Origin: a virus
Taxonomy: Duplodnaviria; Heunggongvirae; Uroviricota; Caudoviricetes
Direction: 5' to 3' (one strand)
Length of the DNA stretch: 9,647 bases
Virus record (IMG/VR): IMGVR_UViG_2534681656_000013
The notes under the pieces were generated by a model. The model was given only the letters and a program-made list of their open reading frames with translations. It did not search any database and was not told the origin of the DNA. How positions within the stretch are numbered: position 1 is the stretch's first letter; every line of letters starts with the position of its first letter. Positions 2,262-7,400 of the stretch are shown here, piece by piece. A program made the position numbers and the translations under genes.

Positions 2262-2375
2262 ATTTTACTGTTCACCTCTGTTCACCTTAAGAAAAAAGAT
2301 AAGTAATACAGTAAGTTAAAGGTTGAACAATAGCAGTAATGACTGTTCACCGTCTGTTCACCACTGTTCACCCGT
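2262..2375 (+). repeat. ori: ori-like iteron cluster: five perfect direct TGTTCACC octamers with helical-turn spacing, followed by an AT-rich tract
   Basis: TGTTCACC at 2269-2276, 2279-2286, 2344-2351, 2355-2362 and 2365-2372, plus a degenerate copy (gttgaaca, about 2322-2329). AT-rich tract at about 2380-2470. The same octamer recurs in the crr-like region about 4.8 kb away, consistent with alpha-binding type I iterons of P4. Confidence 0.7.
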
Positions 2376-2530
2376 TGATGGACTTTTTGTGCTGTTTATT
2401 ACTTTTTATTTTTATTAATTCACTGAAATAAATAAGAAAAAACAATTTGTATTTCACTATAAAAAATTCCAGGTCCTTCAGAACCCTTTGAGACCCTTCC
2501 AGTCCGGATGGATAAAAAACACACAGCCAT

Positions 2531-2548
2531 TGTAAGGTTGCCGGAACA
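2531..2548 (+). promoter_or_regulatory. TGT-N12-ACA dyad, candidate activator site of a PLL-like late promoter upstream of vis
   Basis: tgt(2531-2533)-N12-aca(2546-2548), centred about 110 bp upstream of the vis ATG (2651). Inference by analogy with P4 PLL, which lies upstream of vis and is late-activated. Confidence 0.3.
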
Positions 2549-2650
2549 AATTCCCCCTGTTGCGTCTGCTGAAAATATTCACAAAATAAAGCGCTACCCG
2601 AAGCCGGACGGACTTATCCGGTGCTGTATGGACATTAACGAGGTATCCCG

Positions 2651-2917
2651 ATGCAAGCTGTTTTTTCTTCCCCGTCTCCCGCCCCTGTTACGCCACTGAT
2701 GCCGCTGCCGGACATCACGCAGGAGCGTTTTTTACGTCTGCCGGAAGTGATGCACCTGTGCGGCCTGTCACGCTCGACCATCTATGAACTCATCCGTAAG
2801 GGGGAATTTCCGCCGCAGGTGAGTCTTGGCGGTAAAAATGTGGCCTGGCTGCACTCTGAAGTCACCGCATGGATGGCCGGGCGCATTGCCGGACGCAAAC
2901 GGGGGTACGACGCATGA
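2651..2917 (+). CDS. vis: Vis / AlpA-family small DNA-binding regulator (excisionase-like HTH), 88 aa
   Basis: 88-aa ORF with an AlpA-type motif ([29 protein letters not shown]) and GAGG about 7 nt upstream of the ATG. Size and position match P4 vis (orf88) as recalled. Confidence 0.8.
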
Positions 2918-4711: not shown

Positions 4712-7045
4712 ATGAAAATGAACGTAACCGCCACCGTCAGCCATGCGCTCGGCCACTGGCCGCGTATTCTCCCGGCGCTGGGGATTCAGGTGCTGAAAAA
4801 CCGTCATCAGCCCTGTCCGGTCTGTGGCGGGAGTGACCGCTTCCGTTTTGATGACAGGGAGGGGCGCGGCACCTGGTACTGCAATCAGTGTGGTGCCGGT
4901 GACGGCCTGAAACTGGTTGAAAAGGTGTTTGGTGTTTCCCCGTCCGACGCGGCCGCAAAGGTGGCTGCCGTGACCGGCAGCCTGCCCCCGGCTGACCCGG
5001 CAGTGACGGCCGCCGCCGGCGCTGAAACAGACGCTGCCCGGAAGAACGCCGCCGCACTGGCACAAACCCTGATGGCAAAAACCCGTCCCGGAACCGGTAA
5101 CGCCTACCTGACCCGCAAGGGCTTTCCCGGCCGGGAATGCCGGATGCTGACCGGCACACACAGAGCCGGTGGCGTGAGCTGGTGCGCCGGTGACCTTGTG
5201 GTGCCACTGTATGACGACAGCGGCGAACTGGTTAACCTTCAGTTAATCAGTGCTGACGGCCGTAAGCGCACCCTGAAAGGCGGACAGGTCAGGGGCACCT
5301 GTCACACCCTTGAAGGACAGAATCAGGCCGGAAAACGTCTGTGGATAGCGGAGGGATACGCGACCGCACTTACCGTGCATCACCTGACCGGTGAAACGGT
5401 GATGGTGGCGCTTTCTTCCGTGAACCTCCTTTCTCTGGCCAGCCTTGCCCGGCAGAAGCATCCGGCCTGTCAGATTGTCCTTGCTGCTGACCGTGACCTC
5501 AGCGGTGACGGCCAGAAAAAAGCCGCCGCAGCCGCAGATGCGTGTGAAGGTGTTGTTGCCCTGCCGCCGGTCTTCGGTGACTGGAATGATGCCTTCACGC
5601 AGTACGGCGGGGGGGCCACCCGTAAGGCCATTTATGATGCCATCCGGCCACCGGCTGAAAGCCCGTTCGACACCATGAGCGAAGCGGAGTTTTCCGCCAT
5701 GAGTACCAGCGAAAAGGCCATGCGTATCTATGAGCATTACGGCGAGGCGCTCGCGGTCGATGCCAACGGCCAGCTTCTGTCCCGCTATGAAAATGGTGTC
5801 TGGAAGGTGCTGCCGCCACAGGACTTTGCCCGGGATGTGGCCGGGCTGTTTCAGCGTCTGCGCGCGCCGTTCTCCTCCGGGAAGGTGGCCTCCGTGGTGG
5901 ACACCCTGAAGCTGATTATTCCGCAGCAGGAAGCCCCCTCCCGCCGCCTGATTGGCTTTCGTAACGGCGTGCTCGACACGCAGAACGGCACGTTCCACCC
6001 GCACAGTCCGTCACACTGGATGCGCACCCTGTGCGATGTGGATTTCACCCCGCCGGTGGACGGTGAAACGCTGGAGACCCACGCCCCCGCGTTCTGGCGC
6101 TGGCTTGACCGTGCCGCCGGTGGCCGTGCGGAAAAACGCGACGTGATTCTGGCCGCACTGTTTATGGTGCTGGCAAACCGCTACGACTGGCAGCTCTTTC
6201 TGGAGGTGACCGGTCCCGGCGGCAGCGGCAAAAGTATCATGGCCGAAATAGCCACCCTGCTGGCCGGTGAGGATAACGCCACGTCGGCCACCATTGAGAC
6301 GCTGGAATCCCCGCGTGAACGTGCCGCGTTAACTGGCTTCTCACTGATACGCCTGCCGGACCAGGAAAAATGGAGCGGCGACGGAGCCGGACTCAAGGCC
6401 ATCACCGGCGGCGATGCGGTGTCCGTTGACCCGAAATACCGGGATGCGTACTCCACGCACATCCCGGCGGTGATTCTGGCCGTGAACAATAACCCGATGC
6501 GCTTCACCGACCGCAGCGGCGGCGTGTCACGCCGGCGGGTGATTATTCACTTCCCGGAACAGATAGCCCCGCAGGAGCGCGACCCGCAGCTTAAGGACAA
6601 AATCACCCGCGAGCTGGCGGTCATCGTGCGTCACCTGATGCAGAAGTTCAGCGACCCGATGCTCGCCCGGTCACTGCTTCAGTCCCAGCAGAACTCAGAC
6701 GAGGCACTGAACATCAAACGGGATGCCGACCCGACGTTTGATTTTATCGGCTATCTGGAAACCCTGCCGCAGACCAGCGGCATGTATATGGGGAACGCCA
6801 GTATCATCCCGCGTAATTACCGTAAATACCTCTATCACGCCTATCTGGCCTACATGGAGGCAAACGGCTACCGGAATGTACTCAGTCTGAAAATGTTCGG
6901 GCTGGGGCTGCCGGTGATGCTGAAGGAATACGGACTGAATTACGAGAAGCGCCATACCAAACAGGGGATACAGACCAACCTGACGCTGAAAGAGGAAAGC
7001 TACGGCGACTGGCTGCCAAAATGTGACGACCCTGCAATAGCCTGA
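4712..7045 (+). CDS. alpha: Alpha-type bifunctional DNA primase-helicase (zinc-binding primase, TOPRIM, superfamily-3 helicase), 777 aa
   Basis: N-terminal CPVCGG...YCNQCG zinc motif, a Walker A box (GPGGSGKS, about 6211-6234), AAGGAG RBS, and a length of 777 aa equal to P4 alpha as recalled. Flanked by TGTTCACC iteron clusters on both sides. Confidence 0.93.
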   Translation: MKMNVTATVSHALGHWPRILPALGIQVLKNRHQPCPVCGGSDRFRFDDREGRGTWYCNQCGAGDGLKLVEKVFGVSPSDAAAKVAAVTGSLPPADPAVTAAAGAETDAARKNAAALAQTLMAKTRPGTGNAYLTRKGFPGRECRMLTGTHRAGGVSWCAGDLVVPLYDDSGELVNLQLISADGRKRTLKGGQVRGTCHTLEGQNQAGKRLWIAEGYATALTVHHLTGETVMVALSSVNLLSLASLARQKHPACQIVLAADRDLSGDGQKKAAAAADACEGVVALPPVFGDWNDAFTQYGGGATRKAIYDAIRPPAESPFDTMSEAEFSAMSTSEKAMRIYEHYGEALAVDANGQLLSRYENGVWKVLPPQDFARDVAGLFQRLRAPFSSGKVASVVDTLKLIIPQQEAPSRRLIGFRNGVLDTQNGTFHPHSPSHWMRTLCDVDFTPPVDGETLETHAPAFWRWLDRAAGGRAEKRDVILAALFMVLANRYDWQLFLEVTGPGGSGKSIMAEIATLLAGEDNATSATIETLESPRERAALTGFSLIRLPDQEKWSGDGAGLKAITGGDAVSVDPKYRDAYSTHIPAVILAVNNNPMRFTDRSGGVSRRRVIIHFPEQIAPQERDPQLKDKITRELAVIVRHLMQKFSDPMLARSLLQSQQNSDEALNIKRDADPTFDFIGYLETLPQTSGMYMGNASIIPRNYRKYLYHAYLAYMEANGYRNVLSLKMFGLGLPVMLKEYGLNYEKRHTKQGIQTNLTLKEESYGDWLPKCDDPAIA

Positions 7046-7052
7046 CCCACCT

Positions 7053-7078
7053 GACCGGCATCTGCCGGTCTTTTTTTT
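7053..7078 (+). terminator. Rho-independent terminator of the alpha operon (gaccggc-atct-gccggtc followed by 8 T)
   Basis: 7-bp GC-rich stem (7053-7059 / 7064-7070) with a 4-nt loop, then T7071-T7078, immediately after the alpha stop (7043-7045). Confidence 0.75.
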
Positions 7079-7089
7079 ATCCCGACATC

Positions 7090-7400
7090 CCCCGAAGGTG
7101 AACAATCCACTGTTCACCCTTCACCGTATATTCACCCGTTATCACACTGAAATTAAAAGAGAAAAACGAAAGGTGAACAGTGTGAACAATCAAATCAAAA
7201 AAAACTTTTTTTCTTCCTGTGTGATTTTCAGTGCGGAGGATTAATCACCGGTATGAGTCACACCGGCAGAATGCCGGAGGTGAAGAATCGAATGTTCACC
7301 CTTCACCCATTATTCACCACCTATCCAACTGAAATAAAAGGAGAAAACAGAAAGGTGAACAGTGTGAACAGTTCTTCCGAAAAAAAATTTTTTTCCTGAG
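7090..7400 (+). repeat. crr: crr-like cis replication region: two roughly 140-bp direct repeat units (182-bp period) carrying type I iterons in both orientations
   Basis: GGTGAACA at 7097-7104, 7172-7179 and 7354-7361; TGTTCACC at 7111-7118 and 7293-7300; degenerate copies at 7181-7188, 7279-7286 and 7363-7370. Motif positions repeat with an exact 182-bp offset. Each unit ends in an A/T homopolymer tract. Confidence 0.7.

Follow-up and report, generated by a model that had tools for sequence, protein, structure and literature searches.

Our alignments, repeat searches and genome comparisons of a 9,647-bp stretch of viral DNA (IMG/VR record IMGVR_UViG_2534681656_000013, whose full length we call the window) suggest, at a probability that we put at about 94%, that two clusters of a short repeated octamer, TGTTCACC, which flank the operon of the replication gene alpha, represent the origin (ori) and the crr of a P4-type satellite prophage and form part of its replication module. 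Positions 58-7393 of the window align in a single piece to phage P4 (X51522 / NC_001609, 11624-4291) with 98.1% identity, and when ori and crr were each compared base by base in pairwise alignments we found that every octamer of the window falls on an annotated P4 repeat. The P4 records X51522 and X05623 (the latter an older entry with the title 'alpha gene and cis replication region crr') annotate these octamer-bearing sites as 'ori type 1 repeat' and 'crr 120bp direct repeat', and the rep_origin of X51522 contains six 'ori type 1 repeats', two direct, one inverted and three direct. An earlier note on this DNA had interpreted the octamers as alpha-protein iterons at ori and crr, and this interpretation is borne out by the overall identity to P4, by homology at every site and by an alpha protein 99% identical to that of P4; the iteron count likewise agrees with P4, with the same six ori sites (one of them mutated here) and five sites in each crr unit. 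The ori/alpha/crr module of P4 has been known since the late 1980s, with descriptions dating from 1987-1993, and what we describe is in this respect a correct but ordinary re-discovery, the only parts beyond the textbook being a private iteron mutation, a comparison of crr unit number among satellites and a possible Wphi-type Cox-box cassette.

Ten exact copies of the octamer occur in the window where 0.33 would be expected, a number attained in 0 of 200 dinucleotide-preserving shuffles, and all ten lie in the two clusters on either side of the alpha operon, five at ori (all on the + strand) and five at crr (Table 1). A scan allowing one mismatch adds an inverted ori copy, TGTTCAAC, and five sites in the crr cluster, and we thus count six type I octamers between sid and vis, two direct, one inverted and three direct, of which five are exact and one has a single mismatch. 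The five direct ori octamers had previously been described as a series at 10-11 bp spacing; all five are present and are phased within groups, but they form a pair and a triplet (2 + 3) lying 65 bp apart with the inverted copy in between, the start-to-start spacings being 10, 65, 11 and 10 bp. The 10-, 11- and 10-bp spacings within the pair and the triplet are compatible with helical phasing. Immediately beside the triplet the composition profile reaches a GC minimum of 17% (2390-2449), and the AT-rich stretch around this minimum is presumed to be the unwinding region. The distance from the last ori iteron to the first crr iteron is 4.7 kb, in good agreement with the roughly 4.8 kb given before, and the longest stretch common to ori and crr is 13 nt, i.e. 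the iteron and its immediate flanks.

Both crr units lie directly downstream of the alpha terminator and constitute a 122-nt direct repeat. Their start-to-start spacing is exactly 182 bp, as had been noticed earlier, although in place of the paired inverted octamers then reported each unit holds the five octamer sites annotated in P4, several with one mismatch. Unit 1 is identical to unit 1 of P4 (120/120) and unit 2 nearly so to unit 2 of P4 (116/120), whereas the two units of the window are identical to each other at only 98 of 122 positions (80%), and P4's own two units likewise differ at 20% of positions. A recent and exact duplication of crr, as proposed in the earlier note, is rejected on these grounds, and also because the two-unit state is found in other genera. 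For this comparison we took, from the species representatives of GTDB, 80 loci with an alpha relative of 57-99% identity; most of them, together with the window, P4 and the element of E. coli O157, gave the 80 loci with at least 520 bp downstream of alpha in which crr was compared. A second crr unit was detectable in 20 of these 80 loci, 17 of which come from other species genomes, and in all 20 alpha is at least 81% identical to P4 alpha. They include Enterobacter, Citrobacter, Raoultella and Klebsiella, and their periods range from 166 to 182 bp apart from single cases of 309 and 330 bp; more distant satellites (Pantoea, Pectobacterium, Serratia, Rahnella and others) have one crr unit. Since two diverged units are common to P4, the window and 17 loci from other species, the crr duplication is old and has been maintained. 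In one locus (L011) the crr sites lie about 700 bp further downstream, which suggests an insertion between alpha and crr.

Representative loci throughout the range of alpha identity, such as L062 (57%) and L080 (60%), have the same ori layout, and where octamer sites are present their TGTTCAC core changes little across alpha identities of 57-100%. Variants of the octamer among satellites (TGTTCACT, CCTTCACC and TCTTCACC) affect the flanking bases, and we found these to be only loosely associated with the type of alpha C-terminal domain. In fact no column among the alpha C-terminal residues perfectly discriminates satellites of the TGTTCACC type from those of the TGTTCACT type, loci L037 and L041 breaking the pattern, and iteron-defined specificity types are therefore not supported at that level. 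The idea that the iterons define a replication-specificity or incompatibility type among satellites thus appears weakly supported at best, as the flanking variants do not cleanly track the DNA-binding domain of alpha. Among 5,426 complete E. coli genomes, P4-type ori sequences were found in 1,049 and crr sequences in 1,160, in every case on the chromosome, so that about one fifth of such genomes carry these sites. Such comparative data are useful in showing that the number of crr units varies across the satellites of the Enterobacterales while the TGTTCAC core is nearly constant. Four of the loci (L004, L005, L006 and L039) have alpha genes 98-99% identical to that of the window and lie on 4-6 kb contigs that were assigned to metagenome bins under the names Ferruginibacter, Clostridiales, 'bacterium' and Ruminococcus; mis-binning of contigs from E. 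coli satellites is the probable reason.

Additional support for the assignment comes through the alpha protein itself. It is identical to P4 alpha at 769 of 777 positions (99%), with Pfam matches to Zn_Ribbon_Prim, Toprim, D5_N, DUF5906 and Pox_D5, and all of the differences lie outside residues 671-770, the segment that matches PDB ID 1KA8 (E = 1e-63), which is the crystallised origin-binding domain of P4 alpha. The window thus holds intact binding sites, an intact alpha initiator, an AT-rich stretch, and the alpha terminator hairpin with its T run ahead of crr. In P4, both ori and crr are needed in cis, with alpha binding to their octamers; replication starts bidirectionally at ori, and Cnr modulates the binding. 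By extension from P4, alpha of the present element would bind the type I iterons at ori and crr through its C-terminal winged-helix domain, and the complexes formed at the two sites would come into contact over the 4.7-kb span of the alpha operon, both steps being drawn from the P4 literature. Its superfamily 3 (SF3) helicase might then open the AT-rich DNA beside the ori iterons and its N-terminal primase provide the primers, leading to bidirectional theta replication from ori, with Cnr (ORF106) presumably tuning the binding of alpha. PMC8628076 cites Ziegelin et al. as a source on P4 replication.

Table 1. Coordinates of the replication module and associated features in the window.
Feature	Coordinates	Strand	Description
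Ori type I iterons 1-2	2269..2286	+	TGTTCACC at 2269 and 2279, 10 bp apart; homologous to P4 9406-9413 and 9396-9403
Inverted ori iteron, degenerate	2322..2329	-	TGTTCAAC here, TGTTCACC in P4
Ori type I iterons 4-6	2344..2372	+	TGTTCACC, starts 2344, 2355, 2365; homologous to P4 9331-9338, 9320-9327 and 9310-9317
AT-rich stretch beside ori iteron triplet	2373..2464	.	composition profile
Variable phased repeats	2465..2512	-	GAAGGGTC / AAAGGGTT / GAAGGACC, ~10-bp spacing; in place of the three 'ori type 2 repeats' of P4
TGT-N12-ACA dyad upstream of vis	2531..2548	+	read from sequence
vis / ORF88, AlpA-family DNA-binding protein	2651..2917	+	Pfam Phage_AlpA; 87/88 identical to P4 ORF88
cnr / ORF106, copy-number regulator of alpha	4377..4697	+	Pfam DUF5375; 105/106 identical to P4 ORF106; immediately upstream of alpha
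alpha	4712..7045	+	777 aa; primase (Zn ribbon, Toprim), SF3 helicase (D5_N, DUF5906), C-terminal winged-helix origin-binding domain
Rho-independent terminator of alpha	7053..7078	+	inverted repeat GACCGGCA-TC-TGCCGGTC and T run; counterpart of P4 'talpha'
crr unit 1	7092..7213	+	exact TGTTCACC at 7097(-), 7111(+), 7172(-); also 7129(+, TATTCACC), 7181(-, TGTTCACA)
crr unit 2	7274..7395	+	exact TGTTCACC at 7293(+), 7354(-); also 7279(-, TCTTCACC), 7311(+, TATTCACC), 7363(-, TGTTCACA)
attR core of satellite	7525..7545	+	21-nt copy of the tRNA-Sec (selC) 3' end, GACTCCTGTGATCTTCCGCCA; aligned with the O157 selC gene

None of our observations contradicts this assignment, but some qualify it. Many of the loci with less than about 70% alpha identity have few or no clear octamer sites, the element is a prophage integrated in an enterobacterial chromosome whose capacity to replicate is a prediction only, and one of its six ori iterons carries a private mutation, a G-to-T change at 2323 relative to P4. 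G is found at this position in all of four close relatives, among them elements with 99.6-99.7% identity to the window. A 40-mer centred on the T2323 variant is found in 0 of the 5,426 complete E. coli genomes, as is any 28-mer that carries the T, as compared to 807 genomes (954 places) for a control 40-mer with the G version. The change may be private to the source or a sequencing error, and may also represent a neutral mutation or early decay. Taken with the neighbouring degenerate island, which has a frameshifted integrase and ends in IS2, it would fit a decaying cryptic prophage in which the cis sites derive from P4, the origin is silent and the octamer clusters are relics. We consider this unlikely. 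Each P4 reading frame present in the window is intact, with 98-100% identity to its P4 counterpart, and the P4 state is retained at five of the six ori iterons and at all ten crr sites. In addition, E. coli 14EC007 has an apparently complete satellite to which the window is 99.7% identical, and the integrase with the frameshift lies beyond attR, as part of the neighbouring island.

Two further explanations concern the function of the octamers. The crr could be mainly a negative element for copy number or incompatibility, at which bound alpha handcuffs or titrates the alpha at ori, and not a positive partner of the origin; distant extra iteron clusters are generally known to act in this way in many iteron plasmids, satellites have either one or two units as expected of a dosage-type element, and the alpha operon includes the copy-number regulator gene cnr. 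However, the P4 record X51522 names crr the 'cis required region for replication' and engineering papers treat it as essential for P4 DNA replication, and as no requirement in cis would exist for an element that acts only negatively we hold this function of crr to be improbable. That the octamers are instead operators of the late promoters Psid and PLL, or act in alpha termination, with no relation to replication, seems very improbable, even though the ori cluster lies between the divergent late genes sid and vis and crr follows just after the alpha terminator: a single octamer is found at two sites 4.7 kb apart that are both mapped as replication sites in P4, the matching DNA-binding domain belongs to a primase-helicase, and what we presume, from what is known of P2 and P4 late promoters, to be the delta/Ogr activator site of PLL is another motif, the TGT-N12-ACA dyad upstream of vis (Table 1).

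Beside the ori iterons lies a second repeat region in which the window departs from P4, and this feature concerns helper-dependent derepression and not replication. We found that 38 of the 140 differences between the window and P4 are concentrated in 2399-2513, the span of P4's three 10-bp type 2 repeats, and that relative to P4 a 48-bp segment (2465-2512) has been replaced. In P4 the type 2 repeats (X51522 9176-9205), situated between ori and PLL, read TGNCTTTAA, the P2 cox-box consensus TTAAA(G/C)NC(A/C) in reverse, and while P4 has two exact matches to this consensus the 2465-2512 stretch of the window has none. Binding of P2 Cox upstream of PLL in P4, with derepression of the prophage, has been reported (PMC3936717), and Wphi Cox reportedly recognises a different repeat and fails to activate P4 (PMC5009727). 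Exact k-mer sharing with helper genomes is on its own uninformative, as 12-mers also arise by chance, and the helper genomes were scanned whole by scored local alignment, with a positive control and with shuffled queries. As the positive control, the P4 segment found its best match in P2 at the Pe-Pc Cox operator (25.89-26.07 kb, score 29). The segment of the window had its best match in Wphi in the attP region (22.56-22.74 kb), also with a score of 29, whereas its best matches in P2 (score 23) and 186 (score 19) did not lie at the P2 Cox site or the Apl site, respectively. The Wphi match covers about 25 of 29 nt, including the 12-mer GGACTGGAAGGG, and as we read the region it would lie between the att core and the P' arm, which is the position of the annotated Cox site of P2. 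With shuffled queries a score of 29 is attained in 3% of the Wphi trials and in 1% of the P2 trials, and the location of the match adds weight beyond the p of about 0.03 that the score provides. An ad hoc motif derived from the window, RAAGGRYY, did not generalise to the Wphi Pe-Pc repeats and the claim of a motif was dropped.

A survey of E. coli genomes reveals that at least three alleles of the type 2 region circulate, with the P4 type in 439 genomes, the window type in 238 and others, such as the O157 allele, making up the rest. Neither Cox nor Apl sites of P2, Wphi or 186 were matched by the O157 variant, and satellites of other genera have yet other phased repeats of 10-11 bp at the type 2 position. 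At present we offer it only as a tentative lead, somewhat short of even odds, that the 2465-2512 repeats are binding sites for a different helper excisionase or regulator, of the Wphi Cox type. If true, near-identical P4 satellites would carry interchangeable cassettes for helper recognition beside ori, and the swapped Cox-box-like cassette would bear on how satellite induction is matched to particular helper phages.

According to Moura de Sousa and Rocha (PMC8628076), the P4-like core set consists of psu, delta, sid, alpA/vis, epsilon/ash and alpha in the P4 order plus an integrase, and in the window we find psu, delta, sid (by position, without a Pfam match), vis, ash and alpha in that order, with an epsilon identical to that of P4. 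The satellite's own integrase would lie to the left of the window, as it does in the 99.7%-identical element of strain 14EC007. Rfam matches to the c4-a1b1 target (2976-3028), isrK (2989-3066) and the C4 antisense RNA (3174-3261) correspond to a P4-type immunity RNA system, and these matches fall inside an open reading frame annotated as Ash/Icd-like. A 19-nt P2/P4 cos sequence, the reverse complement of GGCGAGGCGGGGAAAGCAC, is present at 39-57, which indicates that the window begins just inside the variable hotspot side of cos.

At the other end, homology with P4 stops at 7393, at the end of crr unit 2, and identity with the 14EC007 satellite (99.7% over window positions 1-7545) ends exactly at 7545. 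Positions 7525-7545 are a copy of the last 21 nt of selC and thus represent the attR of the satellite. In 14EC007 the satellite stands alone at selC, in the order tRNA-Sec, int, two hotspot genes, psu, delta, sid, ori, the alpha operon, crr and the host gene setC, and we take retronphage phiR73 to be a P4-type satellite at selC as well. ARAGORN detected no complete tRNA in the window, where selC is represented by the 21-nt 3' fragment only, and a full tRNA between crr and int is thereby ruled out. An integrase at 7843-9034 was considered as the satellite's own and rejected, since identity with the solitary selC satellite ends at the att core; alpha-adjacent integrases are moreover described as rare and assigned to neighbouring elements (PMC8628076). 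It has about 90% DNA identity to the integrase preceding the locus of enterocyte effacement (LEE) in O157:H7 and is frameshifted by an extra G at 8638. This is a tandem array at selC, in which the satellite is followed by a second island with a frameshifted integrase. Upstream of this integrase, at about 7677-7761, there is an extra stretch of approximately 103 bp without a counterpart in the O157:H7 homologue, flanked by the imperfect 18-bp direct repeats GGGGTACTTTAGGGGGTA and GGGGTGCATTGGGGGTAT. The second island is cut short about 370 bp past its integrase, after AT-rich DNA, by an IS2 end at 9400-9647 that has 96-97% identity to IS2 / InsD sequences from phage records. For annotation this fixes the right end of the satellite, with crr ending at 7395 and the attR core at 7525-7545, and places the adjacent integrase in a second selC island.

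Among known systems there is a likeness to iteron-controlled theta replicons with a distant cluster, such as R6K, which also have helically spaced initiator repeats beside AT-rich DNA and a second iteron cluster kilobases away that acts in cis. The comparison would extend only to the way in which such replicons work: unlike R6K-type replicons, the initiator here is a primase-helicase fusion, not of the Rep/pi type, and the iteron is only 8 bp. Another P4-type satellite at selC is the O157:H7 933L-like element next to the LEE, which is arranged in the same way, with a second integrase and the LEE after it, and which differs in that its type 2 repeat region is of a third kind. From the 14EC007 satellite the window differs by its private iteron mutation and by the second island downstream. 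Phage P4 differs in several respects, as its inverted ori iteron lacks the mutation seen here, its crr period is 180 and not 182 bp (two 1-bp T-run indels in the spacer), its type 2 repeats are P2 cox boxes that are replaced in the window, and its attP/int is specific for leuX and lies next to crr, whereas the att of the window is at selC. Both nevertheless have the same octamer, the same ori layout and two crr repeats of about 120 nt, each with five sites, placed after the alpha terminator, combined with alpha and Cnr proteins that are each 99% identical.

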